From contig CM082588.2 in assembly GCA_040954595.2 (NCBI GenBank), positions 1,169,935 through 1,233,934 of the forward strand: DNA of 64,000 nucleotides. Reading direction: 5' to 3'. The notes under the pieces are model-generated. The model was not told the origin of the DNA and searched no databases. It saw nothing but the letters and a program-made list of their open reading frames with translations. Positions 16,401-55,400 of the stretch are shown in pieces. The position numbers and the translations under genes are program-made. The stretch comes from Balanoglossus misakiensis. Lineage: Eukaryota; Animalia; Hemichordata. How positions within the stretch are numbered: the first letter of the stretch is position 1; every line of letters begins with the position of its first letter.

Positions 16401-19400
16401 TGACTTGAACGGGAAACAGCGGTTGATGCGTTCCACGATGTTGTCAAACAGCCGCGAGTAAATGGCCTTGGCGAGGGCGTCTCTGGCGTGTGAAGCCTGG
16501 TCTTTTCGCAAAGGGACTCTGCATAAAAAAATGTACTTTTATCCATGGTGATTTTTTTATTTCCACACATACTTTGATCAAACTGTACAAAGAAGAACCT
16601 ACACGTCCACAATGCAAAGACACAACACTTTAAACTGTAAGTGCTGGTCAGACAGGACCACTGTCGGACCAGCGTGGGGAGAATCACGAACACTTACTTG
16701 ATGAGAGTGCCACGTCCACCACCCTTGGCCGTCTGCATAATACGAGTTGTCAAGCTCTCTCTCAGATCCTCCGTATCGACCATCAACAACATCGACGCCA
16801 ATTTCAGGGCATTCTCTGCCTTGTCAGACACCATGCTCCCACCTTGTCAAAGCAACACAATAAAAGTTTTAGCTTCATCAAAAACACATCTACATGAATA
16901 CACAGTTTCCCCCACAGCATTACACGTGAACTTCATAACTGCTTTTGCCTTAAAATAACACTTTGCCTAGTTGGGTCTAAAGACTGCCATTTATTAAGTT
17001 CTCATTGCACATTATCTTTGAGCATTATTCAGTAACATTTATAACCTCAAAGTATGGATATTAACTCATTATTGCTGATCAAATCTGTCATATTTTGCCC
17101 CTAAATTGCATCAATAGCAGTGCAGACGTTAAAAAATATCTACGATGGTGTAACACTGTGCAAATTGTCAAAAATTAAACAATATTGTGCATTACTTTCA
17201 TACAAGCACAAACATAATTTTGCCATTATAATAAAATATTCTAAGACTGAATAAAAACAGAAACATGAACCAAATTAAACACAAATATAATTCAAAATGA
17301 AAAATGACTGGTGACCTTCATAAGTAGAACCTGAGGAGACCACAGCTTTGGTGAAAAAATAAGCAAGAAAACCAAAAAAGTGTTGTTAGCACTAATCTAT
17401 AAGGAACTGCTGCGTGGATGCATCAATGACAGATATTGGCCCAAGTTTTACTCTTGAGGAAACTGGACCAAGATCCATAGAAGCAGTGCTTGTAACAAAT
17501 GTAATTCTTTCAATGTCTCTTAATACTCATACTGCAGTATTTACTGGGTAGATGTTGTGTGAGTTTTGTGCAGATTTTAGAGATAACAAAGAATCATTTT
17601 GAAAAACCAAAGACATGGGAGCCATTCTGAATTTCAATGTGGCAGCCATTTTAAATCTTGGGGCAAAGGTCACCAAATTAGCCAATCAGATGCAAGGAAG
17701 CTCACAACACACCTTTGGTGTCTTCAGAACTCTCCTCAAACGCTATGTTGCCAAGATGCAAGACACTTGCCACCACCCGGAATATATCCATCTTTTCATC
17801 CTCTGTGATTCCCAGTTTCTGCATGGCAACATCCATTTTCTTGAAGTCCTTGACATCATCCAGAATGATGTCAGTCATACCGCCCTCCTTCTTGTGCTGT
17901 TGTAAAAAAATGCCACATAATTAGAGATCTCATGTCACTGTGGTAACATGAGGGACCTCACGCGAGGCTGGGAAATTAGCACTTTTCATGACCCAAACCT
18001 GACCATCAGCACTATAGTTTCACTGGTAGAAACAAGTTTGATTTGAACAAGATGACCACTGAAACAATATTCCAACAGGATGTAAGGTTAAAGGTCATGA
18101 AAGCGGTCACATTTCTTAACCCAACAAAGAACTTGAAACCATTAAAAACAAGTTTCATATAAGTTTATACACCACTAATGAACTACACTTGGAGTTTATA
18201 TTTTGACACACATCCACAAAACCAATAAAAATTGACTTGTATACAAATTTATAATTGTCTGTGCATAACACTAATATCATGTTTGTATACATGCACATGG
18301 GATGGTTGAAGTGCCTTTGCACATTTTCAGACAGTTTGTGTGTGATTCTGTGTATACAGAGGTGAGATAAACATTGCAATTCAGGGAGGAACTGGGATCA
18401 CACACAGTAACAGTATTAACCAGAGTTTGGTGTTGGATCAAACCATCTTTTTTGCTCCTTCAGTGACATGTCAGACACAATACAAAAACATTCCACAAAA
18501 TTATTAAAGGGCAACAGGAAAATGTGATCAATCGTTGATTCTAATTTACTTACGCATTTGTTAGTTCATGGTGAAGAAAAGGTTAAGTTGCCAAAGTAAA
18601 ATATGAAATGAATTCAAAACTCAGTTAAGAACATCAAAGCAAAGTTGAAAAAGAAATCATAGAATGACTCATAGTTCATAAGTATGCATAAGAAGATGAA
18701 AATAAGTTTTTAAATCAAATAAATGAACTACTGCTCGAGAAAGTAAAGACAAAAGAAAATGCTATAACCATAGGCGGTGCTGTTGAAATTGGATAGTGAC
18801 ACTTACCTGGGCACTCTTGCGATCATCAGAGAGTTTAGAAGTTGTTTCTTTGGATGTGAAATACTGTTTGTTTCCAAATTTCAGATACTGTTCAGAGAAA
18901 AACAAAGAGACATATTTTATTTCCAGTATTTCATGCATAGCAACAGCACTAGGAATTTATCATTCAACAGATACATCAGTGATGGGATAACACAAGTGGT
19001 CTTTCTTCCTGTTTCCTTACAAGATTACGTCACTAAACCATCCATGCCTTTCCTTCCTGAAAAAAGTCCCGGAATGAAATAATCGTAGGATGAATGTACT
19101 ATTGCTGATTATTACACTAGTATTCTCTTTAAAAATTCTCCTTAGAATTCGAACCTAGCTGTAAAAGTTTGTCACACGGATGTGCAACTCAGCCATGCCG
19201 CTATGGCGCTTAGAAACATCATGGATCAGTCACAGGCCTCACAACACATACATGTACATCTTACAACACCAACACATCAGAACACACACACCAGACTGTC
19301 CACATTTCACTTACCTGGAAATCATCAGGCGTGGTAATCGCAAGTTTCTTTCGCAGTTCTTGAGAGGCACCAGCACATATTCTGTAGAACACATGGTAGT

Positions 19401-22400
19401 TTCTCTCTTCTTTGCTTTGACCAACGATGCGAGATTTTTCAAGCAGGTAATGAGATACATAGCCACCAACCACTGTATTCTGTTTAACAATAAAACAACA
19501 TGAAATACTTTAGTTTGTGCCGAAGTTACAGAAACCCCTTTTTAAACCTGACGTGCGATCAGATAATTTTCAACAATGCTCAATCCACACCTTTAATTGT
19601 AAGTTATGAAAAAGACTTTATTTATTTATTATTTGGTAAACATATGTGCCTGCGTTCTGCCATGAACTTACTTTCTCATTGAAATGCATCTCTACAAATT
19701 TTCCAAAACGACTACTGTTATTGTTTCTGACAGTCTTGGCATTTCCAAAAGCCTCCAGGAGAGGGTTGGCCTCCACAATTCTCTGTTCTATAACGCCTGC
19801 ACCTGAACCGTGAGATTCGGTCAGATACCTGTAAACGACAACAAAATATTATCGGTAACTGATTGTTCAAAGGTCAGAGGTCAATTCAAAGGCTGGGTTG
19901 GCCATGGGTGGCCGCCATCTTGGCAGGGTGAAACCATTCATTCAAAGATTAGTTAAGGGACTAACCAAATTCATCTTCAGGAGGGGATTATTCTTACCGT
20001 AGTATATACTTTGTGGATTCTGTTTTTCCAGCACCACTCTCTCCGCTGACAATGATGGACTGACTCATTTTGTAAACTTTCATGTCTCGGAATGCCTTGT
20101 CAGCTGAACAGAGTGACAAGAAAAGAAGACAAAGTCTTTTATTTGTTCAAAAATATTCTGAAATGCTAATCTCATATGTGACAAGCTCTAGACATGTGTC
20201 GTCATATCATGTACAATTCAACTTCTTCAGTCCAGGATGACATCAGGCACGTGATACAGTAGATCCATCATGGCCTCGTGGGGAGGCCACGATTACAAGA
20301 AGTCTAGACAGTCTATTTTCATTCATCACAGTCGGAAAACTGCAGTGCCGGTAGTAATGAAACCACTCTGCCATAATTGGGTTAAGAGGCAGGGGTTCTG
20401 GCTGCCTTCTGTGCGTATATGTGAGCCACTTAGATCAGTCATTCTTGCCAGACATGTACAATATGTTCACGACATATGTAGTGAAATAGTCAGATTCCAT
20501 GAAACCCGACCTGCATGTGGGTTTGACATGCACTAATACAACAATATTAGATTTCCACACACACTGTGAACACACACAGGTGCTGGAGATTAAATTTCAT
20601 GTTCTGTACGCGATTCGATGTTGTACCTACCGATGGCAAACACGTGAGGTGGCAATACACCTAGAGATTTTCCTTGATACTTCTTGATGACGTCTTGAGA
20701 ATATAATTTGGGCATGTCACTGTATGGGTTGACTGCTATAAGAATATTTGCCACATATGTCTGAGGGTGGGGGTGGGGAGAGAGAGACAGATTTGTGAGA
20801 AATCTAATTATGTGAATGCATTGTTACCACTTATGGACAGATTTCTTTCTCAGTTCCTAGCATTCCCCCTCCCCCAATTCATGTAAAATCTGGATTTCTA
20901 AACACTTAAACACTTCATAATTGTTATTCCATGCACATCATTGTCTTATAAAGATTTCGACAGCGACAAATGAATTATTCAAAAGTGGCGCGACTGCTTA
21001 ATGTGGCAAAGTCACTACAAATCCTCCCATTTGTTCTGACAGAGATAGAAAAAATCACATCCGGCTATTTGAGAAATTAGTCTGCATTAGTGCATGCTTC
21101 AGAAAAAGATTGACAAGAAACGCCACTTTGAATTGACAGAGTCTAAATCTGATAACATGCAATGCCCACTGAACAAGGAGTGTATTTATCTCTTTTTTCA
21201 GAAAATACCACAGTTATACTTACATAAATTTGGTTTTTCTTGTATCTAAGTCGTAAATTATTCAGCAGTGTAGCTTCGTTCAAATACATTAAGGCACCTG
21301 AAATTGAAAATAATTGAAAAATAAAATTGTAAATAGAAAAAAAAATATTGAAACATTCTCTTGTTGGCTTCAGGGTTGTTATGCTTGAATGAAATTCTGT
21401 GTAGGACAGGAAAGCAATGAGCAGTGGTGTATTCAAAGGTTTCTGAACACTAGCAGAAAAATACAGTCCATTTTCAAGGAGATTTGCTGAAGGAAGTCAT
21501 CATTTTCAATGGTGAAAAAGAAAAATGACGCACACCATTGAAAAATATTCCTTACTTAGAGTTGGACTATATTCAACATCTTTGCCAATTCATTTTACAG
21601 AAACACAGATGACAGTGATATTATTAATGCCAAATACAGAATGGATTAGATGTGTGATAGATGTCATCAAAATTGACCTTTCTTTTGTTGAGACTGCATT
21701 AACCGAGTCAGAGTAAAATATGTCATCATTTTCCCTTCGATTAAAATTTCCCAGTTGAGCAACGAGTTCCCTGATGATGCCTTTCAAATTATTCCCTGAT
21801 TGTGAAAATTTCACTTTAGGTGTCGCTTCAAGGACCAGACCACACCCAAGTAATTTATCTCAGAAGCTCCCCTCCCCCCCTCTAGGGCTAATTTCTCTCC
21901 TGTGACATTTTAGTTTCGCTTTGTTAATTTTTGCTTCTGTATATAGCGAGATAAACATGTGAATTATTACCACACTGGGGAAGGAGAGAAGTTAAACACC
22001 AAAATATTTAAGTTGAAGATATCATGCCGCAATACTATATTTTTAAGTGGTATCTTTCTCAGTGTTATTTCTGCTAAATACATGATTTCTGTAATTTGAC
22101 ACTTTGACAGGCCTTGTACAATTACACGCAAGATGAAAAACACTGTGTCACACAGAATTCCCATATGTCAGCCCCACCTGGTGTCGGCTTAGGTGATACG
22201 CTGGATAAAAAGCGCACGTCTTAGCTTTTAAAAAAAGGGCATATGCAAAAGAGACCTTGGTGTTAATCAGCCGATCATTGAACCACTTTACTTCACCACT
22301 TAAAGAATTATCCTTCGAAATCAGCACATAAAATAACGTGCTGGTGTTTTTCAGAATATAAAATGAACTCACAGAGGCTAATTTTCCTCAAAGCGCAGGC

Positions 22401-32756: not shown

Positions 32757-35700
32757 CTAGATTCTGAGCAGGTGATTGGTGATATTCTCCCAGCTGGAGC
32801 CCAGCTCTAACTGATAGTAAATAGAAGGGTATGCCTTGTCCAATTGCTTGATCAGGACGAGCACAACTGTCAGCCGGTTTCTCCATTCACTTGGCACGCT
32901 GCCAGACAGCTTCAAGAGATCGTCAAACCACTGCGGCCACTGATTCCTTAACACAGACAACAGAATCACCAGGACAACCAACGCAAAAATATCATTGTAT
33001 GCTTTCCATCCTGCAAAAGAAAGAAAGAAACCATCACACAAAAGAAATAGCATTCTAATTGTTTGTGACAAGAGAACAGAACAGCCCTTGATAGAACACT
33101 GGCATGATGATGGTTGCCAAGGGTGATGACTTACCCAGAGACTTCAGTCCAGCATCCTCTAGTACTTGTATGATCATCTTACTGTTGATTCCAAATGTCT
33201 GGTCGACAGTGTCAGCAAATAACTGGTCAAAGCAGTCAGAAAGGTCTCTCTGTATTTAAAAAACAACACACGGAATAATTTTTTATTTTTGAGAGATACA
33301 AACAGACTGATGGATCCAAAAGTTCCCTTGTTTCCAATCAGCTGGAGATTGTTGTAATCAATGGTAGGTAGACGAATTCTTCCATGGGAAGTTTTTACAT
33401 TTTAAAAGAGGTGTAATTTCAAATTAACAGGTACACACAGTAAATATGCATGCATTCATACATACATGTGATCTATTGCAGAAACAAGCAATCTGCTTAC
33501 CTTCTTTCCGAATATGTCAATCAGAACATCAATTGTAGTCACAGCCTGTGGAGGGTCATAACAAATGTAGATTTTCATATTATGTTACAATGACATATCG
33601 GCAGTATATAATCTCTTTCTTCAACTACAAGAATTTCAGTTAAAAATAAACAATATATTCAGTGGTGATCATAATTAACGTCTGCATTTCAATTTCTTTT
33701 TACCGGTAATAAAACATTAAATCAAACACCAAACAGACATCGATGACTAAAGTTGTTGACTAAGTTTAAATACTGGACTCTTTCTGATTGGTTGATATTA
33801 TTGATGAATCAAATTCAAACATCAGTGTGTCATGCTCTGATTGGTCATCTTGCAATTCTAAAATTGAACTTCTTACAAGCTTTTGTTTCTCTTCTCCCCA
33901 AAGTCCAGATTCAGGTCTTGTGATGTTTGGCAGGCCTGTAGTAGATGTCTCAGCTTCCATAGGTTCTGTAAAAGACAATATTTATAATGTTATTGACAAA
34001 ATACATGATATTTTATTGTAAGGTAAGTTTTACACGCAACTTGTATCATATATGCAACAAACCAGACAAGCCGGAGCAGTACTCTGTGGCCTACACTGTC
34101 CTTGTTTTTGTGTCACCTACTTGGAGATGGCGTCATGTTTTGGAAGGACACCCTCTTTATGGAAAAGGTGTATGGCTATGAGAATAGATTTCGTTCCCTT
34201 ACCTGGAGATGGAATGGCTGATACTCCATATAATTCAGCACCATGACGAATATCGTTATATATCCTATGCCTGGGCTTCCTCACTATTCCTGCATTACAC
34301 AGAGGTAAAGAAGAATTATTCACAAAATACCAGGATTTATGTCCAAGTACATCATACAGAGGAGGAACTTTAATGTAAGGTAAGATTTGTACGCAACTTG
34401 TATTATATATACCGTACAACAATCCAGACAAGCTTGGGCAGTACTCTGTGACCTGCTGGTCTTGTTTTCGTGTTGTCTCCTTTGAGATGAGGCCATGTTT
34501 TGAAAGGACGCCCTAATTCTTATGAAAAGCTACGAGTATAGATTTCGTTCCCTTACCTGGTGGTGGAATGGCTGCTTCCGGTACAGCATTAGATAGTGCC
34601 AGCTCAGAGAGTAATGACATGGAGACATCAGCATCAGCATCACGTTGCCAATCACCATAACCAAGAACTTCTTCATCTTCTGCACCCCATGAACGCCTCA
34701 TACCCACCTTTTTCTTCTTCTTCTTCTTACCAACTAAACTCTCTTCGGCGGCAATCAACTCCACTGGCTTTTCTGCTCGCCAACTGACAGAAGGCGCAGA
34801 CTGAGCAGTAGACTTCTCGCTGACTTTCCCGCACAAGAATGTGGGACCCCCTTTCTTTATTGCTGCATACACAGGATGTACTGGTAAAGAAGAATCGTCC
34901 AGATGCTTGCCACGTCCTCTTCCTCCTTTCTTGTACTGCAGAAAGTAAATTGAACAGCTTTGTCATGTTGCACTGGACACCCAAAAATGGTTAAATAGGA
35001 GTGGTGTAGTTAAAACATTTGATCAACTTTGTTTCTCTGTGTTTAGTTCCTGGGACTCGATTCACAAACATGTTGATACCATGAGTAAAAATATTTATAT
35101 TTCTGTGTTTTTTAAAGTGTTTGATTCAAATATACCAGTCCACGAATTTTGTTTCCTCTAATCAACAGAATAACAGGGAAACGATCAACAGTCGATTTTT
35201 GAGCACATGAAATGTGAATCAAAAATAAGGTTAAATCTTATTCACCACACAACATCTACAGGGATCTAAGATACTATTACATAGTGTATTTAGCTGGTTT
35301 TAGTTATGAGAACTACACAACATGTATTAGAAGCTATTTACAGTTGCAAAGAAAGAGCGTAGCTAGGTTTATTTATGAGATAAATTCTTCTACATACATG
35401 TACCAGTGTGGGAGATGCGACAGATCGTGCTAAAATCTGTGAGGATTTTAGATTTTTTTTCTGTGTTTCCTTTTCAGTGTCAGAGCTTTCAGCAAGGACA
35501 GTTTTTCCGCGGAACTTTCGTGGTTTTATCAGAGGTTTTTGTTTGTCTGCTTCATCGCGTTCCTGCTTTTCAGAAGTTGCTGGTTGGTGTTTTGCTGGAA
35601 TGGGTAGGTCTGCAGTGGACACACTGGGTAAAATCGATCGGTACATTTCTGGTTCAAAGGGCTTCAAATAACTGAGATCTGCAGTCTCCATTGGAGTTGA

Positions 35701-38700
35701 TGTAACAGCTGCAGTTCCATGGTGATCCTGGACCGCAGCACTGGAACCAAATCCAAGGGCACTAACACTTCCAGGTGATGGCTGAGTCGCAGTACCAAAA
35801 GTGATGAACCCAGATGAACTTTCCCCTGTTGGCTGCTGAGTTGCAGCACCCAATCTCACACTAGAGCCACCCCCAGATATTGACTGCACTGCAGCACCAA
35901 AACCAAACCCTGCTGCAGGCCCAGATATTGGCTGAGGTGCAGCTCCAAAACCACACGGTGCTGCCACTGCAGACCCGAATGCACTGCTGCCACTTGACTG
36001 CAACGGTGCAGAACCAAACCGGAGCCCAGCTGAACCTCGTTGTTTGCTTAAAAAGCGGTAACTCATGGCCTGTTCATCAGACACTGAATTAGTTCGTGGT
36101 GGTCCTCGTGGTGGTGGTGGTGGTGGTCGCTGTGCTTCTGATCGGAAATCCACAGCTCTCTGATCAGACACTGGTGCATCTTTTGGCTGCAGTGGAGGCC
36201 GAGGGGGCGGCAACAGGGACAACTCTGATTTATCTGATTCTAACTCTCTTTCACCGCTTTCGTCAGATGACAGTTCTTCATTCAATCTTGACTGCACAGA
36301 CATGTACAGTTGTTGCATCTGTTGTTGTTGTTGTGGCACTGGTAGTGTAGAACTCGGTGAATATGCCTTCCTTGGTGGTAGCAATCTCTGTGCTTTGACT
36401 GGTGCTCTTGCTGGCATTGGTGGTGCTTCAGCGTATGGTGGTGGTGGTGGTGGGGCACCTATATGTGATAATTGTGGTGGTGGTGGTGGTGGTGATGGTG
36501 GTGGTGGTGGTGCTAATAATTCTGCCTCATCAGGTGATGTCGGCGTTTGTAGGGCACGCACTGTAATTCCCCTGGATGGCACTGCTCCTGCTGGAACTGG
36601 TGGCACTGTAGTTTTTTTCACTGGTGGTGGTGGTGGTGGTGGTAGTGGTGAATACTTCTTAATGATGTCCCTCCTTGTTGCACCCAGCACAGCAGCTGCA
36701 GGTCTTGCAATTGGTATCGGTCGTGCTTGCGATCTTCTGGTTGCAGATGCTTTTGCAAAGCCTGTGGTTGGTGGCGATGGTGGTGAGGGTGCTTCATATA
36801 GTTCTGACTGTACCAGAAATGACTCTGCAACATAAAATAAAATGACACTGGCAGAACAGCTAGATCGACAACAAACAAGCATATAAACAGTAAACAAATA
36901 AATGCATCACTTCTAGTCAGTTTAATTCTCTTACCACCGAGGGGCTGATGCTTAAACCTGTGGGAAAAATTACAGCAACTCTCGATCCCTACAGAATTTG
37001 ATCTAGTACTGTCATACATAAACTCAAGTACACTGTCCAAACTTGGGTAATAAATACATGTACCGTAGTTACACACACGCACACAGACAAATGATCGCAT
37101 AACCGCGGCCACCCCCACCCACTGGTATATGCATGTAGTGGTAACAAGCAGGAGACAACTACACCATCATTGTCCAGTAAAATTCTATGCTTTTCCCTGA
37201 CCCAGATAATATTCATATCACCCATGTAGAAAGTAATATTTACCTCGTTTCGCAGGTTTAGGAGGTGCACCTCGCTTCTTCGAAGTAGTATAGTCGGCGT
37301 CACCAAATAGACCAAAACCCATATCTTCATCAGATGACTCCTCTGATAGACCAAAAACCGTATTTTCATAACATGACGGGTCTGGTGATTCTTCTATTAC
37401 ACAATGAAAATGAAGACGAAATTTCAGGATTTTAAACACTACTTTGCTTTAGAATTGCTGGCATGCTGTCTATTCATTCAAAAAAATAAATAAAAGATAC
37501 ACCCAGATAATGATCTGGCATTGAACTTAAAGACAAGACCAACAAAAAATTATGGTTGTGACAATAAAGAACTTTTCAACTGGGTATTTATAAACACTTT
37601 CACTTTCTTTTTTCCCCGGTTCCTTAAAATTTGAAAGCCACACTTTGTAACATCACAGACAGTAGAATTAGAGATCTAACCATCTTTAATATACAGTATT
37701 AGACATACCTTCTTTGGGTTTGGGTTTGGATTTTACACCTAGCTCCTTGAAAACAGCGGACATTTCTTCTATTACGTTCATGTAAATGAAAAAAAAATGT
37801 TTTGGATAAAGTTGTTTTCACATCCTTGTTCACACTGTGTCAATGGCATGTTTAACTATTATGATTTATCCCCAACTCCAAATTCACATGTGAAAGAAAG
37901 ACTTTGGCCATTAAAATGACAAATCTGGAAGATTATGCACCTCAACAACTTGTGACCAGATGGCAAATTACGTACCTCGTTCTTGCACAGGCTTGATCTC
38001 GGTTTCCAACTTCGCAGGGAAATCATCAGAACACATGACTTTTCAAGATAAAAAACAGAAGAGGTTACAAGTGGACATTTCTCACCCTGATGTTGGGTTT
38101 AGCCTTTGCTTGTACAATCAAATCTGTGTTAATAGTGGCCACCTTTTGAAATATGTTACAGTTCCTATGCAATTAATTTACATGTGGATTAATTGACTTG
38201 TCTGTAAAGGCCACCTGTCTATAAAGGCCACATTGGGATAGTATTCAGTTGATTTTAATGTGCAATATACACACTGAAACATATGTGTGGTGCATTCTTA
38301 ATAAATGGATAATATAAAACAACTTTGCATACAATCGTCAGCCAAATTTGGCAGAGTCCAGTCAGTGCGGTGGCTATACCCTATCATCCCACCACCTAGA
38401 AGAAAAAATGATTTGGATTATTTTTTATTATGCTTTAGTGGTAAGAATTATGACAATGGCTACGTCATGTGACACAAACGAATGTGGGGGAGGGGTGTTC
38501 TAGTGTAAGTTTGTTTTATGTATGTTTAGGGGGGTCCTGGTCAAAGGGATTCACGTTGCACAGATTAAAGTCACTTACCACTTAACCTCTGTAGCTGTGG
38601 AGGTCTAGCTGGCACCTGGTAATAGAGAAATATACAATGTTAAATGAGTTAAAGAGAAATCAAGAGCATTAGCATTAGATGACTGAATATTTGCTCGTTT

Positions 38701-41700
38701 TCCCCAAACCATTGGCTAGATCAATGTCTGACCTGACCGAAGGAATATTACATCCATACAGATCCATCGTTTGAGGGCACTTCCTATGCTTTGGGTGTAG
38801 GGCGCACCCTTGAATGTACGATCTTTCTGTCAGCAGAAAAAAAACTGTGATAAACATTTCTTACCAGTGGCTGTTTATCGGCTTCTCTTGTTGATTTCAA
38901 ATCTCGGCGTGATAGTTTACGAGTTCTTACTACAAGAAGCAGATAGGTAAATTTTGTCATTTCTATATTATATGATGACATATTGCTTACTTCAATACCA
39001 GAATAGGTTTGTAAATTTGTTAACTATATTAGTTGCAAACATTAATTGACTTGGTGGCAACATCTACAGTCAAAAAAGCAATAAATCAAATAGCAAGATG
39101 TCTGGAAACCAATCGATTATATCACCAGTGAAACTAATAGCTTCTGATAAAGAGAGAACGCTAACATATTTAAAACTAGTCCAATAATATGCAACACTCG
39201 GCTGTCAATCTGGCAGCAGCAGCAACAAAGCAAACAGAATCAACAGCAGACATGAAAACTCACCTGGGGCACTGGCACGAGATAATGTGGGTGCAGACAT
39301 CAGCTGACTTTCCATCAGGGGAGGGTGCATCACGCTTCCCACTTTTCTCCTCCCTGTTGCCTCCAATCCGACATAACTGTCTTTCTGGCCCATCCCGACC
39401 ATGACACCTCGGTGACGGGGGCGGCCAACAGCTGTGGGGAAGACTGCTTGGGGCTGTAGTGGACCGACCAAGCCAGCTTTGGTCAGCATTGATCCACTGT
39501 CAATTAAAATTGGTGGTCTCTCTTCTTCCTCCTCCTCCTCCTCTTCTTCCTCATCCTCCTCTTCTTCCTCATCCTCCTCTTCCTTCTCTAAATTAAAGCT
39601 ACATGTATTTAAGCACAAATCTTCCAGGCTGTAATCACCGTCATCTATATCGCAATAATCCAGGAGCTCATCAACACCTTCAAAGACAGAAATATAGAGA
39701 CAAAATATAGAGCAAGGTGATGGAAACTCAAATAGTCATAAATGACAAAGCATCCTGAGGAATCATTACAGTGCCCTCTTTGCCAACTTAAAGCAAACAC
39801 TATTTCAGTCTGATTGTAATACAGCAAGTGATTTAATGTTGATTCCTTCATGGAGGTAAATCAGAACCTATAAGGGGTCACGATATAACCAATTACATCA
39901 CCTGAGTCAGCCATCATTGGAAGATCAGGCCGTGACTCCAGGATCAGCCGTTTCAACAGTAAATTCTGATGCTACACATTGCATTTACCTGTAAAATCAT
40001 TGAACAATTCTATTTCTATTGCTTTATCCATAAATAGGTCTCTTTCTGTTTCTTCCATTGATTCGAAAAACCTTAGAATAAAACAAAACTAATTAAACAT
40101 AGAAGCAATGCGCAATTATCTACAAATCTATGAGAAATAAAGCAACTCCCTTGAATAGTTAAATATCATTTTCATAAACTGTTGCAATATATGCATGCAG
40201 TCTTGAAACTTTCCCCATTGTGTCAGTCCAAGTACCCTACATACCAGACCAGAGAGCAAATATCCCAAAAAGTTTTCAACTAACAACAGCACTCTGCTGA
40301 GCTTGTTCATGGAACCACAAGAGAACTATAATGATTATAGATCAGACTTACCCTTTCAGTTCTTTCACTGAATCATTGTAACTGTCCTCGTTAAGAGAAT
40401 CAAGGCTCTGATAACATCCTGCAAATAACAATTGTAGTATCATCAAAAAATTCTAAGGAAAGCCAGACTGTTTTCAGCACCTGCATAGTAAATTTCGAAA
40501 ATGTAAATCACAGGGCGTTTGTTGTCTTTGTGATAAATGTTTGAATGGGTCCTGTCTGGACAATAATACATCAGAAGGATGGATGCCTATGGTTGAATAG
40601 ACTCATGTACATAGGTTATCCATACCCATCACACAAATCCCCTTCATCAATTTTTCCAAGCAGCAAATGATTATATGAGATGCTCACCATCTAATGTGTC
40701 AAATGCTATGGATTTATACTTTTCCGTGTCTCCCTGTACTTCCTTGACAAAGTTGGCAAACGAGTATGCAACCTGAAAACAAAATCAGACACTGATTTCT
40801 CTTAAATTTTGACATGTAACTTTTGTCGTCACAGATCTGGACTGCAGCTGATATCCACAGTTGTCTAAAGCTAATGTTTACTGGATGTGAATTTGGGTGT
40901 CTATTATTAACCCCCTTACTTATAAATAAGATAGGCCAACCACAATTGGTTATATTACAGGTGATTCCAAATGCATAAAAAGGGGTGTTGCCTACTTACT
41001 TGCAGCCTCAGGGGATGTGAAGGTTGTAAATCTTTGATGGCGATTTCATGGGCGTCTTTGTAAGCTCTCTCGGCTTGAAGGACCATGGAAAGATTCTCGC
41101 TGGTCTTTGCCCGCTCCAGCAACTTTTTGATTTCTTCTTCACCACTCAGCTGTAAAAAAGTAACAAGTCATTGTAGATGACACAGTCTCCACTAGACGAC
41201 CTGCTGTGGTTCAATAATACACTGAACAGTGAACTGATATGTAATAATGCAAATAACCACGGAGGAGTGACCATGAAATAAAAGACACAAATCTGCATGC
41301 AAGAGTATGACAAACTTCTTACTGCCACTTCTTTGCATGGTTTCTCTTCCCATCCAATGTAGGTCAGAATGTCGACATCTTCCTTAGCAACCAGCTCTTC
41401 AATGCTTGGTCCTCGAGGTCCCAGTAACTCCTCATCCTAAAAAAGTCAGAGTTGAGGAGAGATTTACACAATCATGATTGGAACATTCCTACTGAAAGCA
41501 TTTTCATCAGCGTTTAGATACCAGTGAATGACTCCAATAACATTTCTTACCTTCTCTCTGGTTTCCACGGCAACAAAGCTGGTGAACTGAGTCACTATAG
41601 AATACTCCTTACTGATACTGATGATATAATCTTTCTGCTCACTCTTCATTACCTCATGCTCTGTGCGATCCATGTCTAAAGTCCCATCCTCCCAATCTCT

Positions 41701-44700
41701 AATGATGGCACGAGCTGTCAGTTGGTGGAGGATCTTGGGAGACAAACAACATACCAAGAATGAGGTAAAACAAGATTTACCAATGTTTCTGTGCCTGCTA
41801 TAAAGTTGGAATGAATTACATATTACAATTACACTACATAGCCATTTTACCCTTTCATCACCGTGGTCCAATCCAACCCATTGTTCTCTATGGTAAGGTT
41901 GGACCTCTAAAGAGGGAACTGGGGGTGAAAGGGTTAACTTGCTTCTGAATAAATCTGCACTCATGTGCACAAAGTTCTCACCTTTCCTCGAGTGATGTTC
42001 AGGTCTGCAGTTGACACCATGGTTGAAACTTGTTGATGATCAATTTCTGCATTCAGTGTTGCCTGAAAAATTGTCAAAATAGGCCTGTTGGTATGATGTT
42101 TTAAGTCAGAAATGACAGCTGAACAGAAGCACCGATATTTTTTCTGTTCTGCAAAACTAACTTTAATCTTCGTCTAGCTGAGTACACTTTTAATTTTATT
42201 TGATTCAGAAGTAATTTGATCAGTTAACATTTACACACGAAGAAGTAGTTCAGGAAACTTGAAAATAAATAGAGATCTTCATGTATACCTGAGTACAGTA
42301 TGGCACAAAACCATAGACCACCTGGCGAGAACCACTGAATAGCGAGACAATCTGATTGGGTGCCTGGATGGGTTTGGGAGCGTCACTGTCAAACTGTTGC
42401 CAAGCAACATGCACTGATGTCAATGCTGGATGTGCTGCTTTCAGGAGTTGGGACTTCACCTGGAGAAGACAGGAATTGTGGGAAAGAATGACAGACAAAC
42501 AGACAGACAGGGAAATGCCTCTTAGAAACTGACTACATGTATCAAGTTCTACCCCATGCTCATATGGAGCAGAAAAAATCAAAGAAGAATGCAAGAAAAC
42601 AGAAAAGACAATCAGTTTTACCTTTCTTTCCCACTTTGATTTAGTTTTCTTGTCAAAGTATTCATACGCACCAGCGCCAACTCTGGCCATCGCCTGAAGT
42701 AAATGTCGGTTTGCAGTTGAACTGAAATTTAAAAAAGAACAAAAATATGAGAATATTTTTAATTTTTATTTAATCACAATTTAATATTTCCCTCCCAAAT
42801 GCTCAAACATCCAAAAGAGCGTGACCTCCCCCATGAATCCCCCCCCCCCCCAGGCCCGAAGAAACTGTCTAGTCCCTAAATGGATTTTACCTGACTCCAA
42901 GGGTAAACACCCTTGTGTGTTGATTACACCGGCGGATAGATTCCAGTGTCATGCTCTCATTGTTGATGTGACCGTCCGAGAGAAGGAATATGTTGCGCAG
43001 ACCGGTGCTGGGGGAGAGTTGGAAGAACGAGTGAAGAGGCCGCCAAAGTTCTGTGTTGCCCATGTCGCCTGTGTCGCAGCACAGCTGGAGAAACTTCCGA
43101 GCCAGTTTGTGGTTTTTCTCAGTTTTGGGCAAGCTGCTCGGGAACAGCTCAACAAAGGCTGAAAGAAATGAATTATTATTAACAGTTAGAATGTTAAATC
43201 ACTCTGAAATTCTTATCAGAATTAGCACATATGGCTTTTATGATACCAGAGCATCAAATGTTAGTCATTTCTAAAACTTCTGAAGTTGATTTGCTACAAG
43301 ATCTTACGGATCTGTAAACCATACTCTGTCAAAGCCGCAGCTAAAATGCCCCAGCACACAACCACTTACTGGTGCCAAAAGTCACGATATTGAAAGTACA
43401 ATTCTCAGGTAAATGATGCAGCAACAACAGCAAGGCTGTGAGTGCCGTGTTCAGGGTATCCTCATCCTCATCCATGGAATTCGACATATCTAACAGAAAC
43501 ACCACTTCATATCCATCCATGCTGTCGGCTTCAAATTCCGGGTAAAATGTCAACATACAAGCCTGTGTTGGGGAAAAAAAACATTATCCGGCATTCAGAA
43601 TCATGTTATCAACTATCTGTAACGAACTGGGTATTATCTTGTTCTCCCTAAAAGCACATTGAAATTCCTGATATTTAACTTGTCATTGTAGTCTGTACAT
43701 TTAGAGCCAGCACTATTATCATCAATGGACAATGATGTCTCCTGTGTGATATATGTATCTCACCTGACTGTCAACTTTATCCGGATGTTTTTCCACCCAC
43801 ATCCTGGGAACATGGATCTCGGCAAGCCCAACCAGCAGTTGGAAGCCATCGCCCAGAGTTGAGTTCTCATCCAGCGCCACAACCGCTTTAGTTGCAGTTC
43901 GCTGTAAAACAAGTGAGTCGCAAAGTCATCATTATTCATTCACCAACACTCATATCCTTTTTTGTATCTTATAAGTAATGATATGAACATGCACTGAAGA
44001 TAGTCAGACCAAATTGAGTCAATCCTTGAATGAGATTTCCACAAGCTATCAAGGAGTAACAAGTATCACACCAAGTCAATGCTTGCGAATAAAATCACTT
44101 GCTATCTATACATACTTACCTTGATGGAGATTTCATGAGTTGGTGATTCTATCGTTCGGATATCAAATGGCATTTCAACAGAAATTTGCAAGTGCACATG
44201 TCTGTCAGGATAATAAATATGTAATTCTTGTGAACCCAACATTTTGTACATATTTGCTATATTTTTTTAATTCATATGGATACTATATTAAAGTCAACAA
44301 AGAAAACGGAACCATATATAAGCCCTCTAGACATCACTTTCTCTTGACTGATGAACTCACCCTTGACCTTCGGCCACTTTCACAGTTTTCACATCTGCTT
44401 GAGTTTCTTGAGAAAGTGCAGAATCTTTCTTCCACGGTGCCACACTCCCAGGAAGTTGGAAATTAATCTTATCCCCGTCCACACTCAGCTCAGTGACGTA
44501 TGTAATCTTGATCAGGACATTTGCTTTGGGAGGCAGGTTGCCCACACTCACTGTGAATACATCCTGGTTGGATGAAACGTTCAAAAAATAACTATAAGGT
44601 ATCATGCATATTTATGCATTCTCATTGGTTGGAGTCAAGCATGTGACACTGCAAGTGTGATCTCATTGGCTATGGTCAGTCACTAAAATCAATGGATCAA

Positions 44701-47700
44701 ATAACATATAGGGGAAAAGATTAACACAAAACACAAATTACCGGAGTTTCTTCATCCATGAGATACGCCCCATGCCCCTTGCTGATGGCTTCCTTATATT
44801 CTTTGTGAGCAGTTTCCTTTTCTTTGACTTCACCAACAATGTGTTTGCCGTTGATGAAGGCTTCAAAACCGCACACTGCTGCCATGGTGTCAAGGGGAAA
44901 CACATACTTTGCCTCTATTGGTATGCTGCTCTCATTTGAATATGCTTGCATGACTATCACCTGGCAACAAGACATGATTTCTTCCCGTTATTCATCAGTA
45001 GAATTTACTGTCAGGGTACGTCTGACTAAACATAGACTATCAGTGAGACAAATATCTTTATGCACAAAACATCCATTATTTGTTGTGCATCAAGGATGCA
45101 ATGATGCATACATTTTCTATTCTCGAAGATGCCCTTAATTGACGGGTTTCACTGTACCTCCAAGACTTGATCAATCTATCAACTTACCTTAGCAACAAGG
45201 TCCAATAGTTGAGCTTTCACGTGCACCGACTTCAAGGGAACTGGTGCGTCACCACTTGAGACCAAACCTGGTTTGACTTTTGACATGGGATCAGTCATAT
45301 TCATAATACCATCCAAGGCTGGAATTGACAACAATTTCTTAGACGAGCATCCACATTGATTACTTGAAGATTGTATCCACACATAAAGGATATTACTTCA
45401 ATGTTAATATTTGGCCAATCTTAAAGAAGTACCGTATAGACGCTTCACAGTATTAACTCTGGTCGACTTCAAATGAAGACTCTTACCCCCATCCAAGTCG
45501 GAGTAACTTGATGAGCTGGACGAGTCATCAGAGCTGCTGTCGTCAGAATCAGAATCTGTTTCTTCGTCCGAAGATTCATCCTGACTGGACGTGTCTTTAA
45601 GCGAAATCGCTTTGGGAACTGGTTTGAGAATGTCACCCTGCAAGGTGAATTCAACCAAGTATCGGATTCGCTGTTGGTTTGTGTTGTACACCACAAACTC
45701 ATCATCCTGTGAAACAAAACACCACATGCAGTGGGTAGTTAGTTGCCATAATGTGAAGAGCAGAAAGATCTTGTTAGGACAAGACCCAAGAAGCCACTGT
45801 GAAATTAGCAAATCCTGAAGAGTTGTGACCTAAAGACATAAAAACATAAGTCATAGCCTATTTAGAAAGAACAGATCTCACTTTGAAATCTGACGGTTTC
45901 AGGTCGGTTCCCTTGACGCCTTGAACACTGTTGTACCCATCTGGTGGCGCTGTCATATTGGTGTCAGATTTGTACATCTCTTGGCACTTCCCTAGAGCCA
46001 CATCAGCCACAACCATCCATCTGGTACCTCTCACCTGATTGGGCGAGCTGTACTTGGCACTTGTGCTGTAAAGACAAAAATAAACATGTCAACTTACCTT
46101 AGAGGCCTCACCTTATTCTTGGTGTGTGGTCCACTAAATGTAACGTATAAACAAGTAGTGGCTACAGATAACAATCACCTTGCAATCTGCACCTTGTGAA
46201 AACAACTAACACCCACACAAATGCAAATATATGGTTTGTACCAAGTTTTCAGCCACAGGAAGATTTTTTACCTTGATGAGTCAGTGAAGTATATTCCATG
46301 GCCGAGCATTCCCGGATCAGTTCGTTTTCCACCAAAGTCATCCACCACTACTTTGGGTAATAACAAGCCTCTATAAAACACAAATATTAAACCAGATTAA
46401 CATGACATGTAGATTCAACTTAATTTCACTACTTAATTGTTACATTTTAATGACAAAATTTGACTTCAAGAAAATTGCTTCACTTTTTTCTGACTTCATT
46501 TTGAAAACACGTACTCCCTCCTACCTTGACAAAATTCCAACAAAGTTAGCAGGCTTGGATGCATGGAACAAGAGCCTGGAATCACCAAGATCTTTGACAA
46601 AGCTACTTTCTTCAACTGACCGGCTCACGGCATAGATGTTTTCTATATTCAGCGAATGGAATCTGTGATATAAATAATACACACATGAAGATTATCAGGG
46701 TTAGAACCAGACATGTTCCTCACTCTGTTCCTCATATGTTCACTCCCTCAATCAATCTATCTCTCACTTACTCACTCACTGCTGTAGCACAGAGATAATC
46801 TTACCCGTCCAAGAAAACCAAGTGTTCAATCCTCTTGTATTCAGAGTCACCTTTCTCAAGATGTTCAATGTGGCATCTTAGAGCATTGTACTTGGCTTTT
46901 GTACTGCCAACACTGGACCAGTTTGTGGCTTCATTCACACTGATGATGTCCCGTATCAGCTGTAAAAAGATAACACGATTACTGCTCAGCAATTCCATCA
47001 AAAAAGATTTGCCAAATATGATTTACAAATTTATATTAAGCCCCCCAAAAAGCTGATGACACTGGGTTTAGTTTACTAGTTGACAAATTATTGTACACAA
47101 ATACATATACTGTACACACACTCACGTACACACACACACAAGATTGAAAAAAAGTAACTGACAACTTATCGACTGACTTACTTGACACAAATCCTGCTTT
47201 TGAGCAATCAGACTTTTGTTGTCGATAAGTGGAATGTTGGTTTTGTGCGGAATGGCGCGTTGATATTCCTGTGTAAGACTTGACAGTTCCTTTTGTGTGG
47301 CCCCGGATTCAATGGCTCTCCTCAACTGTAGTAAAACAGCCTCTGCTTTCTCAACCTATATGGGTTTAATAAGAATAGTCATACCACCAGGAAAACACAC
47401 ATTTGGTAACTCTGAAAACGTTTGGAGTCTTTTTATTAAAATGTGAGAGTACTATTAAATGCCACTTACTTGTTCAATTTTTAATGAGGCCACAGGATTC
47501 AATAAAACCTCATCTAATTTCCCAAGAGCTTCTTGCCAAATCAGTTTCACTAGCGTAGACACTTCAGGTGAGAGATACTTGGCTTCAGTCGTCTCCAACA
47601 TCATCTGTAAAGCACAAACATGTGACATCAATTCGACCAATGAGATCATTTACAAAGTTCACAACACTGATTTTCTAAATATTTTTTGAAGTTTGATCAA

Positions 47701-49607
47701 TATAATTTGACATGACAGCACTATACCTTCCTGAATTTGCCAGATCCTATATACCTGGAGACCAAATCAAAGGATTTTGTCATCTTTCTCGGACCTTCAC
47801 TTCGTTGATTGTACAGGAAAGTATAGCATTCCAGAGCCTCATCAGCAGAGTGTAGGTAACGATACTCTCTAGTTCCGCAAGATTCATCCTTGTCAGAGAG
47901 AAAGACAACGAAAATTAGACTTTTTTTTAAAAAGTACCCTTTTTGGACATTCAAGATTTTCACAAACATTGCTTTATGCTGGATTGGCAAAGCATCTCTT
48001 TGGGGGCTTCAGCAGTAACCTCCCTATTCTTGCGAGAAGACTGAAGGGGAACATATACCAATGATTTCTGCTGCAACATATACAAATTTCATCAAAAGAA
48101 ACAATAACCTGAATAAAAAGTAAGCAGTATCTTACCTTCATTTCTGATAGAAGACCATAGTGGGTGACGACTCTAAAGTTATACTCATTGTCATTTGGTT
48201 TGTCTTTCAGATCATTCAGTGGTTGTACGTGGATCTCCATGACGAAGAAGGTCACCTCGCCACTTTTCTTCTCTTTCCTCTGCAAAAATGAACGAGGTAA
48301 AAGTTCAAGTTGAAATTATACAGGTGGGACCAGGCTTCTGTTGTTTACAGTGCAGGCTAGCTATCGTAAGAGGGTTGATATTAATGAATGATCTTCAGTG
48401 GAATTGAACAAGCCAAAAGTAACCAATGTTTCATGATCACAAGTTGACATATGATTTAACATACTGTGCTAAGTCACATGCTTGTGATAATGGAAATATT
48501 GAATACTTTCTGATGTTTCTGCTCTCCATAAGCCCTTACCTGTAAGATGGTACTTTTGGCAACCTCATACTTATCTTCATCAAAGAATGGTGCTGTGTCA
48601 TAGCCATCTCTCCAGACTCTAGTTCAACAGAAAATTGAAATATGAAAATATACTTTATGTGTGCCATGCCCTCCAGTTGTTATTGTCCCCCATATTCAGG
48701 GCCAATCCTCTAATAGCTAGAATACATCACATGATACTGCTGGACCAGTCAATATAGCTTGAGTTTTTGATTGACATTTATGGGCGGAGCAAGATAAAAT
48801 AGCAGAACATGTACTGTGCTACTGCAGACACAACAAGACTAGTTGATCATTTGCTTTAATGCAAACACAGACCTGTTTACTTTATTCATCCCATTTGACA
48901 CATGTCATGACCATACTCACTTTATTTTGTTTATGTTGAAAGTTGTCTTGACAGTTTTCTGTTTCTGGTCATTTTGCTGAAGTTGTTTGCTAGCTGTTGG
49001 GAGAACAGAATGAGATGGAAATGTGTTCTCGTAGTCCAAGCGAAGAAAGCAAGCATATAAAGAGTTCTAAATTTTGAATAAATTGTGCATCCCAGTCCAC
49101 ATCTTTTGACACTTACCTACAATCTTTCCAGAACTGAATTCATTGGATCTGGAGACTCCATACACAACATACGGATCAGCATCCAGTAAAGCTGCTTTCT
49201 CCACACAATCATGGATGAAATCCATGGATACAACCGGAATACCATACTTGACAGCTTGTCTCATTTTATAAGATAGGTCTCCTTTCTCAGGGTTGCTGAC
49301 CACCAGATACGTACTCTGGAATTATAACAGAGGATGTGTGACTATTTAACGAAATTGTTATGTGATTATGTCAAAAAGTGTTTTTCCTTCTTTTCTATGA
49401 AAGGCAAATGTACCCGTTGAGTTTCTTGGGTTGTGGAAATGACACCTCACAAAATAATCAGCGATATGTGACTTTCACCTTCTTTGTGATGATGTAACTG
49501 ACAACTCCATCATTGTTTGTGATCTTCTTCCGCAAATCTTGCTTCTTCTTGAAAGGGACACTGGTGCTCAGTTCCAGTGCAATTTGACATTTGCTGAAAA
49601 TTCCCAT
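32757..49607 (-). CDS. PARP4: PARP4 / vault poly(ADP-ribose) polymerase: BRCT - WGR-like - regulatory - ART - VIT - vWA - long insert - C-terminal domain
   Basis: Start [13 protein letters not shown] (49479-49607, BRCT). Catalytic exons carry LLFHAS (~46525-46662), GMLGHGIYF (~46272-46370) and [17 protein letters not shown] (~45488-45706). VIT: [47 protein letters not shown] (~44742-44960). vWA: [11 protein letters not shown] (~43371-43563), IFLLSDGHI (~42891-43158), [10 protein letters not shown] (~41551-41733). Last exons [10 protein letters not shown] and [22 protein letters not shown] resemble the recalled human PARP4 C-terminus (YPSICPRLELGNDWDSATKQLL). About 43 coding exons; a few small exons in 36900-39700 are uncertain. 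Confidence 0.95.
34017..34590. repeat. Diverged tandem duplication (period about 355 bp) of an exon end, splice donor and intron inside PARP4
   Basis: 34017-34240 aligns with 34374-34590, e.g. TGTAAGGTAAG..ACGCAACTTGTAT..CCAGACAAGC..GCAGTACTCTGTG..TAGATTTCGTTCCCTTACCTGG..TGGAATGGCTG. The exon ends translate AIPSPG and AIPPPG. Confidence 0.9.
35404..36824 (-). CDS. PARP4: PARP4 large low-complexity exon: polyproline tracts followed by FG/GFG-rich repeats
   Basis: Within ORF 35338-36897. GT donor after ..ASPTL (phase 0) fits the next exon, YKKGGRGRG (34557-34935). The 5' boundary is approximate. Confidence 0.85.
37244..37393 (-). CDS. PARP4: PARP4 exon carrying a ribosomal P-protein C-terminal-like motif, [15 protein letters not shown] (37299-37343)
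   Basis: TAG acceptor, GTAAAT donor, 150 nt, phase 1-1, open frame. The P0/P1/P2 consensus is EESDDDMGFGLFD. Confidence 0.8.
39264..39587 (-). CDS. PARP4: PARP4 exon: poly-Glu tract plus actin N-terminal fragment (39322-39516)
   Basis: TTTAG acceptor, GTGAG donor, 324 nt, phase 1-1, no stop codon. Ungapped match to actin residues ~6-70 including [21 protein letters not shown]. Confidence 0.85.
40352..41149 (-). CDS. PARP4: Three PARP4 exons (41000-41149, 40688-40772, 40352-40418) encoding a 14-3-3 C-terminal-helix-like segment
   Basis: Spliced translation ..[25 protein letters not shown]|[28 protein letters not shown]|[22 protein letters not shown]. Canonical CAG/GT sites with compatible phases (0,0,1,2). 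These exons are too short to appear in the ORF track. Confidence 0.85.
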
Positions 49608-52446: not shown

Positions 52447-55400
52447 TTATGAAACATCTGTAAGAGAACAAAGACAGAGAAACCATCAGTAACATTTACA
52501 AGGGAAATAAATTCATTTAATCCTTTACATACTTGCAGCTGCCTGCACACGAGGGAATCAAGCTACAAATGTCATCAGCATAAAATTTCAGCAATAAACA
52601 TATTTCTTTTTATATAATTATAATCAATGCCTCTCACACCACAAGGTTTATTACAAGCAGCTGGTAACTACTAGTCGTGGTCTATTTCGTCTCTATTAAA
52701 TTGAAATGAAATGACCACTATTATTTGTAAAAGGATAATGAGCTCATGCACAACCAGCTTGCCATGGAATTTCTACTGGCAATCAAATTAGCTGTGAATG
52801 AGCTGTTGTCCAACTGAAGTGTTAATGGTGATGAGGTGACCCATCAATGCAAGGAAACAATGCCGAGTGGCCAGCCTTTCCCCAATGCATGTAAACAGTG
52901 CAAGAAAAACTTGATATTCTATGGGATTTGCACAGTTGAGAATGAATACCAAACACTATCAATTTGAATAACAATTGCAGGCTATTCAATAATGCATACT
53001 GCAATCAATGTGACAGAAACGAACACTATTGCCAGTTTCAAAGCCTGGTAAGGCCAAAACGTGGATAATTTGCATGTTTACAGGAACGAATTTATAAAAT
53101 TTACACCGAGAATAATGTTTATGACTCAACATGTATATTTTTTATAAACTTGCTTTGTGGTGGTGAACAGTAAACCTGCTGGTAACATACATAAATATGC
53201 AGTTATGCTAATTTCGGTACTGCCCTCATCAATACCCTGGACACCACCCATTCTGCAACTATAAACCGACCACCGAGATTTTATTGCCAATATGACACTG
53301 AAATTCCACTCCCCCTAAACTGCAATTACCATAGTAACTACCCAGTAACATTCTCTCTAATTTTCTCCTGAATCACACAACCACTCGGCATATTTCACAA
53401 TCTGCAATATCATTTCTATGGTTTCAGCTGGTCTTAATTCTCACTGTATCAGTTTGTACCCAAGAATACTTACAGCTAGCAGCAGTTTCACCAAACCGTC
53501 TGTGGAGTTGGTCATGGTTGAACTTCAAAAAGGCTTCATATTGTTCTGTAAATGCAATGAGAAATGGAAGAAACGCCAGGTTATTCATTATCTGTCAAAC
53601 ATTTGCATTCATTTACAGCCATCGATCACTGGACTATGCATAATCATACAATTATTTATAGGACATGTCAAAAAGCTGAATATTTAATGCAATGCACAGG
53701 TCATGGCAATAAGTTGTGTGGAATTGTTACAATTGACAACGGTGGCAAATATCCCACCACTGGTATGCATATCAATTTCTCTAGGCAATTTCAGAGTTGG
53801 ATGCACATAAGAGCTAATGGCACAGCTGAAATCCCATCCCCACAGGGTTTTCACGACTGTGATAATGTACATTCGGCCATTATTCTCTAATGTAATTCAC
53901 AATTCCCTGCTGATTTACTGCCAAAGAAACCCCATTCAGTCACAAAACACCCCAACAAGCTCACCAGCAGTGTATTCAAAAATCAAGAACTTTTTCACAG
54001 CTGGTGACCACAACAACTGTCTCTCGCTATTTATGCGACACTATTCATTACCATACTGGAGACCAACTTCAAAGGGATTGGCGTGGAGTGGGGGGAGGTA
54101 TGTACTCAATAGCACACAACAAACATGTTTCTCAATGGGTCCTACTCTTGTACAGCCACGATGGTATTCACGTCACATATACGCACACATCAAATATGCG
54201 CTCCACTCCCCATACAATCCCCATCACATTCTGTGACTGATGGCTTTCACTGGCCCCAGATGACAAGGTTTCCATTACTCCACAAGACAAATCCATCATG
54301 CGCCATTTCATAAGCAGAGCCACTTGATTTTTTCTCCCACTCCCTTTACTAACTGGTTTTATGTGAGCCACTCGTCTCACCAGTACATTTCTGAACATTA
54401 CAAGAAATTAAAAGTCGCCATATATTCCAAGAGGTCTTTGTTTTTTTTCTTCAAACCATATCTGAACACATACCAGGAAATCTTTTTTCAGGAGAAACTG
54501 CCTAGGCACCCTTTTGTCAATTCCAGCATGTCCACATGGAATTTCTATTATATTATATTCAACATACATACGCAGCAGACTGGTTCAGGAATTTCCAGTT
54601 AATTTGATACGGGGTATCAACATCAGTTTGGCTTTTTGGGTGCAGTTTTGTTCCGAAACTGTGCAGTACTGACATTGTTCCAGCCAGTAATAACAGCACT
54701 CTGAATTTTATAGACATAATTAGGGAAGGCATACCTGCAAGTTTGCATGTCAGCGTTTTGTCATATTCCTCTCTGATTTGCTCCTCTCGTTCCTTGAGAA
54801 GCCTCTCGCACAGCGTGATGACCTGTCTCAATGTAAATATAGGCTGTTCTTTACGTGAAGGCGATGAACCGGGCGACGACACAGCTGGGGACAAACTCGA
54901 CAGAAATTGCACATGTTGGCTGAGATTACTTGATAACGATGAGGAGGATGACGAGGAGGTGGAGGCCTGTGCGACTGGCGTCGGTATGTGGGAGACACTC
55001 GTGGAAGTACTGCTACTATTTGTAAATGCAGTTGATAGCTTCTTGCGTCGTTGCATCCGTCGCCATTCTAACATGACATTGTTTGATAGTTGTTCTGAAA
55101 AAAATATACAAAAGGCACAAATTAGGTACATACAGTATGATACAAGTAAAAATAATGTAATCTGATCACCTCTGTCCCACATTCCATTATTTTACAGGAA
55201 CAAAATCATCCCCACCCCTCCCCTCCTATCACCAGAGCTAATCCACTTTTCAGGAGCAATGTTTGCTCTCAAGTCATGTTACGATAAACCAATTCCAAAG
55301 TACAACGTGATTCAAATAGGATTCAATGCAATTATCAAGCCAACCACAAAACAAGAATGGCTTAGGTAACTTTAGGTATATAACTTACTAGTACTGAAAA

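Follow-up and report, generated by a model that had tools for sequence, protein, structure and literature searches.

In a 64,000-nucleotide stretch of the genome of the hemichordate Balanoglossus misakiensis (assembly GCA_040954595.2, contig CM082588.2, positions 1,169,935 to 1,233,934; hereafter the window), sequence matches identify a minus-strand gene as PARP4, with the PARP4s of other acorn worms as its nearest relatives. The long linker between its ITIH-like core and its vault-binding end carries truncated pieces of unrelated host proteins, and we hold, with moderate confidence, that this linker is an intracellular bait array for pathogen enzymes and effectors. We favor this reading because the donors are unrelated, the pieces are crippled, the sets of pieces turn over between lineages and selection acts on a surface that is known to be attacked, and also because the mammalian linker is under positive selection and the related protein ITIH4 offers a precedent. 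The gene and its three recognizable pieces lie as follows.

32757..49607 (-): PARP4 (vault PARP) gene, whole span, from collinear tblastn matches to acorn-worm PARP4s
40352..41149 (-): C-terminal half of 14-3-3 (about zeta 138-215), helix 9 missing, on exons 41149-41000, 40772-40688 and 40418-40352
39264..39677 (-): phase 1-1 exon with an acidic tract and actin residues about 2-70, its DNase-I-binding loop (D-loop) region retained but its ATP loop changed
37244..37393 (-): phase 1-1 exon with an internal P-stalk tail motif and a decayed 39-nucleotide tandem copy upstream

The acidic tract and actin N-terminus described in an initial annotation of this DNA are confirmed, since exon 39677-39264 scores above the Pfam actin cut-off (28.4 vs 27) and aligns to actin residues ~2-72 with an E of 3e-19. 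Across profile positions 8-68, 52 true actin N-termini prove 95-99% invariant, and the actin pieces of PARP4 proteins retain 96% identity at positions 36-56 versus 57% at 8-35 and 52% at 57-68. This contrast between a kept D-loop region and decayed flanks is seen in all 16 of the PARP4 actin pieces compared (one per genus), was reached in none of 20,000 column shuffles, and is sharp in the window itself (95% at 36-56, 46% at 8-35 and 25% at 57-68). The D-loop is retained from sponges to hemichordates. The phosphate (ATP) loop is not: its Asn is kept in 1 of 20 actin pieces and its second Gly in none, and with both residues changed the window piece lacks the intact phosphate loop of a full actin ATPase fold. 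A kept D-loop beside a lost phosphate loop shows that the D-loop surface, and no ATPase function, is what the piece has been retained for. Serratia proteases cut actin between Gly42 and Val43 (PMC7311988), a bond that falls within the retained part. In an AlphaFold model of a sponge homolog (35-row alignment, mean predicted local distance difference test score [pLDDT] 64), the D-loop part has a pLDDT below 50, which suggests that this region may be disordered there, although low confidence does not prove disorder; the same model contains an ITIH1-like core, a helical bundle and a folded ubiquitin, with ITIH1 and ubiquitin in the top 50 of a fold search. Actin N-terminal pieces also occur in other settings. 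P0271, P0273, P0274, P0280 and P0281 each contain 3-6 tandem degenerate copies, and P0312 (478 residues) has one such piece together with polyproline, acidic-Trp and poly-Lys tracts and a C-terminus that by eye is helical like that of PARP4/VWA5, suggesting that similar arrays exist outside the sampled animals.

The 14-3-3 piece was said to be a C-terminal segment encoded on spliced in-frame exons, and this holds with the splicing predicted. When the three exons are joined in frame, they align without gaps over 78 residues to positions 142-219 of a 256-position profile built from 52 full-length 14-3-3 proteins (E 4.2e-14 in a 150-sequence search). Exon 41149-41000 alone matches Pfam 14-3-3 at E 2.7e-5 (24.3 bits, under the 33.2 cut-off) and 14-3-3 chains in the PDB at E 3e-5. 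A full 14-3-3 protein has nine helices, including the dimer helices, and a phosphopeptide groove, and the window piece is not one: it lacks the dimer helices and helix 9, and most of its groove helix is altered, but it keeps the turn between helices 8 and 9. Truncation is the rule in the family, where all 17 PARP4 14-3-3 matches begin at profile position 133 or later, without dimer helices. The Pseudomonas toxins ExoS and ExoT contact 14-3-3 through helices 8-9 and their turn (PMC6141617), so a copy that stops before helix 9 offers only part of that surface. Of the earlier idea that each piece was trimmed to an interaction surface, the retained turn survives here, while the copy is degenerate and helix 9 is gone; judged at the level of helices, the lancelet and Owenia PARP4 copies retain more of what ExoS and ExoT use.

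The P-stalk motif is weak when taken alone, with a Pfam match to the last 13 positions of Ribosomal_60s at E 0.068 and no PDB match for its exon. It is upheld by recurrence, since the pattern is found in 21 of 58 invertebrate linkers, the window included, against 0.0 expected from shuffles, and pieces in relatives reach E 1e-5. Glandiceps PARP4 is without the window's motif, and a fish PARP4 (P0124) has two copies within a vertebrate linker, at 1265-1291 and 1391-1417. An Arf domain on the same fish protein was set aside as a likely read-through, at the extreme C-terminus of a low-quality model. The C-termini of P-proteins recruit elongation factors and several ribosome-inactivating proteins (PMC6273143), and 14-3-3, actin and the P-stalk are all known effector targets by the literature (PMC6141617, PMC7311988, PMC6273143).

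Gain and loss of different fragments across invertebrates had been predicted and is what the family survey and Pfam rescans show. In a hand count among 120 of 262 matches, with two doubtful matches excluded, Pfam families foreign to PARP4 were present in 43 of 70 non-vertebrate rows versus 1 of 50 vertebrate rows. The rescans covered 41 invertebrate proteins, 23 of them picked because they or close relatives showed donor matches; Pfam found no donor piece in 6 of the 18 invertebrate proteins of the second scan, nor in any of 3 vertebrates. The donors found in linkers comprise the 14-3-3 half, the actin N-terminus, ubiquitin, synaptobrevin (VAMP), Snf7, the HSP70 substrate domain, EF-hands, PDZ, WH2, the Pol II repeat, the phenylalanine-glycine (FG) repeat and the P-stalk tail. 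Donor sets differ among several Mytilus and two Dysidea PARP4 records, and the 14-3-3 half is decayed or gone in many lineages. The linkers of P0082, P0013 and P0066 contain putative SNAP-25-like SNARE stretches, seen by eye and not scored by Pfam. The initial annotation described the fragments as captured, but the 14-3-3 and actin pieces are no captures of this lineage: 14-3-3 precedes actin in all five proteins that carry both, two sponges among them, and an order common to sponges argues that both pieces are old and were inherited. A whole 2563-residue PARP4 with P-stalk and HSP70 pieces is encoded on each of three Logan contigs, which measure 8.2-8.8 kb; they are too short for introns and so are likely spliced transcripts, pieces included.

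A census by motif pattern compared 58 invertebrate linkers (window, truncated models and paralogs included) with 62 vertebrate linkers. The invertebrate counts were 21 for the P-stalk, 16 for the actin D-loop, 18 for the Pol II repeat, 8 for a histone H3 tail-like pattern, 4 for an actin C-terminus-like pattern and 4 for WH2, and the vertebrate counts, in the same order, were 2, 0, 4, 0, 0 and 0, with shuffles giving 0.0-0.15. The H3 tail-like and actin C-terminus-like labels are putative. Vertebrate PARP4 linkers are shorter, with a median of 413 residues, and nearly devoid of recognizable donors, unlike the window linker, which has about 1065 residues, many exons and named donors.

Donor fusions on clade 5 PARPs are already in print. 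Perina et al. 2014 reported 14-3-3 on VIT-vWA PARP4-like proteins of lancelet, sea urchin, Capsaspora and amoebae, and noted actin and ubiquitin-related domains on clade 5 PARPs (PMC4245714). Their section 3.1.2 treats these as signaling and cytoskeleton domains and makes no mention of truncation, D-loop retention, the wider set of donors or baits (PMC4245714). The accessible text of Citarelli 2010 and of the Dictyostelium Vwa1 paper adds nothing further on linker pieces, and a literature search whose reach largely excluded subscription journals and supplements returned no report of trimming, multi-donor turnover or a bait role for PARP4. The mammalian counterpart, PARP4 exon 30, likewise lies between the ITIH-like region and the MVP-interacting domain and is disordered (PMC4038475, PMC10450202). 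Positive selection acts on it in both primates and bats (PMC4038475), and it has been proposed as a pathogen interface or viral cleavage site (PMC4038475, PMC10450202), the suggestion of viral cleavage in the linker being that of Suskiewicz et al. 2023 (PMC10450202).

The initial annotation had likened the pieces to the integrated domains of plant NLRs (receptors with nucleotide-binding and leucine-rich repeat parts), and its bait proposal is partly supported, in that the pieces are real, in frame and under selection, although a closer precedent is ITIH4, a VIT-vWA relative. As NLR integrated domains do, the PARP4 linker may display effector-target copies, variable between lineages, in a putative defense protein. 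It differs in having no NB-LRR architecture (no NB-ARC/NACHT or LRR family appeared in the scanned window exons or homologs), in carrying several short pieces in series, and in an output that would be ADP-ribosylation or vault tethering. In ITIH4, a variable proline-rich region is cut, after which the protein traps the protease through its MIDAS, an adhesion site that depends on a metal ion (Pihl et al. 2021, PMC7793589). ITIH4 and PARP4 share a VIT-vWA scaffold, a MIDAS and a variable proline-rich region after the core, the window gene having a VIT-vWA core with intact MIDAS, and the PARP4 core fold resembles ITIH1 in the homolog model and in published work (PMC10450202). ITIH4, on the other hand, is secreted, traps host proteases and is no enzyme, while PARP4 is an intracellular ADP-ribosyltransferase that displays copies of host proteins. 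On the bait reading, an effector whose usual target is actin, 14-3-3 or the ribosomal stalk, whether it cleaves, modifies or binds that target, would be drawn to the linker copy instead. More speculatively, once the copy is engaged or cleaved, the effector might be held by the vWA MIDAS, as happens in ITIH4, and the ADP-ribosyltransferase might be released or activated, or the effector might stay attached to the vault.

Several points weigh against a bait array. The steps after display of the pieces are inferred. Host partners dock on the kept surfaces as well, and conservation by itself therefore cannot tell a bait from an adaptor. PARP4 attaches to the inner face of the vault wall (preprint 10.64898/2026.05.01.722283), a position that may hide the linker from effectors, and some pieces have been kept since before animals, more slowly exchanged than an arms race might suggest. 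The window 14-3-3 half, besides lacking helix 9, differs at several helix 8 positions, and the window P-stalk motif is internal and ends in Gly instead of forming a free C-terminus. Because the 16 actin pieces share descent, they are less independent than the p-values imply, and the census patterns were composed after the sequences had been viewed. Finally, the splicing of the window linker is predicted from genomic splice signals and phase.

The strongest alternative, which we consider unlikely without dismissing it, is that the pieces mimic docking sites and so bring host partners or cargo (elongation factors, actin regulators, transport receptors, 14-3-3 clients) to PARP4 and the vault. Host docking motifs include the WH2, polyproline, FG and P-stalk elements, 80S ribosomes lie inside Dictyostelium vaults (in 80 of 985 cytosolic ones), which also bind the endoplasmic reticulum and nuclear envelope (PMC13100048), and Perina 2014 took the actin and ubiquitin domains as links to the cytoskeleton and ubiquitination (PMC4245714). 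The idea keeps its standing because host partners do dock on such surfaces, ribosomes are found within vaults and PARP4 sits along the vault lumen, but SNARE, ESCRT, HSP70, Pol II and actin pieces together fit no single host pathway, the sets vary between close relatives and paralogs, and vertebrates have lost nearly all of them.

It is far less probable that the linker senses the stress enzymes of the host itself (proteases, oxidases, kinases, deubiquitinases) by offering them substrates. Rapid donor turnover suits conflict better than such a bait for self enzymes, although the ITIH4 bait is cut by host proteases (PMC7793589). The ubiquitin-like inserts point both ways, with the terminal Gly-Gly kept in 14 of 19 and followed by Pro in 7 of those 14. 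A Pro after Gly-Gly slows host deubiquitinases. Marginally less probable again are tolerated relics in a permissive disordered linker, or gene models that join pseudogene debris, for although the 14-3-3 half decays or vanishes in many lineages, several annotated relatives stop inside the linker and seven window exons are without relatives, this is opposed by a 14-3-3 alignment that is gap-free and in frame across two introns, the D-loop kept from sponges to hemichordates, the shared 14-3-3/actin order and the likely spliced Logan transcripts. Fragments that are in frame, selected and variable across invertebrates favor a bait array over debris.

The remainder of the gene has the domain order of PARP4, the clade 5 vault PARP: BRCT, PARP, VIT, vWA, linker and MVP-binding end. 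Its conserved parts are as follows.

49070..49607 (-): BRCT exons, Pfam BRCT_2 at E 1e-5 on 49070-49321
45698..46565 (-): PARP catalytic exons, Pfam PARP at E 2e-11
44742..44963 (-): VIT exon, Pfam VIT at E 6e-25
42893..43574 (-): vWA exons, Pfam VWA_3/VWA_2, with MIDAS D-x-S-x-S, Thr and Asp visible in the open reading frames
41323..41733 (-): last two exons of the conserved ITIH-like core, with matches in 152 and 142 of 154 database proteins
32757..33249 (-): exons of the C-terminal helical domain, MVP-interacting by position and homology, with matches in 11 and 88 of the 154 database proteins

The PARP4s of Glandiceps, Ptychodera and Saccoglossus align collinearly with the window by tblastn from residue 1 (49607), the Glandiceps matches running from the first through the last exon. 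The N-terminal half of the gene is drawn from these collinear protein matches and from single exons. Single exons also bear out the earlier claim of an intact catalytic H-Y-E triad, with His at 46565-46563, Tyr at 46291-46289 and Glu at 45700-45698, residues assigned by motif position. An acidic Ser-rich tract (45521-45600, minus strand) separates the PARP and VIT domains. Identity of the last core exon with acorn-worm PARP4 reaches 89-92%, and the last exon of the gene aligns with the C-termini of 88 of the 154 database proteins (best E 9e-18), as befits an MVP-interacting domain, while no Pfam model matches the C-terminal helical exons.

From 41733 to the stop, 20 predicted exons with AG/GT ends form a single open frame of 1309 residues, and the span first annotated is correct, the first 14-3-3 exon starting at 41149 and a predicted exon ending at 34203. 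Outside the donor pieces, the linker contains the following.

39989..40071 (-): small acidic exon, predicted from splice signals and phase
37709..38929 (-): five predicted micro-exons (38929-38865, 38615-38579, 38395-38333, 38038-37976 and 37768-37709) and an ambiguous candidate at 38826
35398..36824 (-): largest exon, with low-complexity tracts (polyproline, Gln-rich, FG-rich)
34557..34935 (-): exon with a poly-Lys tract and a motif shared with Glandiceps PARP4 (blastp E 6e-5)
34203..34289 (-): predicted phase 1-1 exon without likeness to actin; its 3' end and next intron repeat, in tandem over ~357 bp, the donor and intron that precede them

Seven small exons (40071, 38929, 38615, 38395, 38038, 37768 and 34289) have no relative at E<=0.01 among the 154 proteins and are predictions from splice signals and phase. 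No Pfam donor family was found in the micro-exons scanned, 38615 and 37768 being too short for the scan. Use of its best-scoring donor would put the 21st candidate exon (38826) out of frame, so this exon must either be left out or be spliced at a weaker donor. Six of the ten exons between 39677 and 34203 are phase 1-1, the actin and P-stalk exons among them, so gain, loss or skipping could occur without a frameshift. The 357-bp donor-plus-intron duplication and the 39-nucleotide duplication of the P-stalk motif show recent local growth of the linker. The polyproline and FG tracts that had been described are visible in exon 36824-35398, which has no significant family or PDB match. A possible second actin remnant was rejected, the best extra match in the window linker scoring -2.5 bits, and a lone Pol II-like pentapeptide was too weak to claim. 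Exon 34557-34935 has no Pfam or PDB match and no donor; its short motif and a longer acidic motif are common to Glandiceps PARP4, the rest of whose linker is unalignable, and the short motif is present in two bivalves too.

Elsewhere in the window, a myosin gene at 12559-21496 on the minus strand (Myosin_head E 2e-36) looks like myosin VI by its motifs, and an Arf-family GTPase exon at 59365-61864 on the plus strand (E 8e-24), followed by long charged open reading frames, belongs to a putative ARL13-like gene. Two minus-strand open reading frames resemble known proteins, 54559-55191 being Akirin-like (no fitting Pfam match) and 5907-6350 like a sestrin N-terminus (no Pfam match).

The function of vaults and of PARP4 has been described as unknown (PMC13100048). 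We tentatively suggest, and would not yet call it probable, that in animals and their unicellular relatives PARP4 acts as an ancient trap receptor inside the cell, combining interchangeable host-protein baits, which would catalog the targets of each lineage's pathogens, with a MIDAS trap, an ADP-ribosyltransferase and the vault. The vault would then be an organelle for effector capture, and exon 30 of mammals a worn-down bait array. If the pieces are instead docking mimics, they name host partners to seek. If the linker is a bait array, it would account for positive selection on mammalian exon 30 and would extend integrated-decoy immunity to an enzyme scaffold outside the NLRs, each piece would name a class of attacker, and the array would give the vault particle a testable job.

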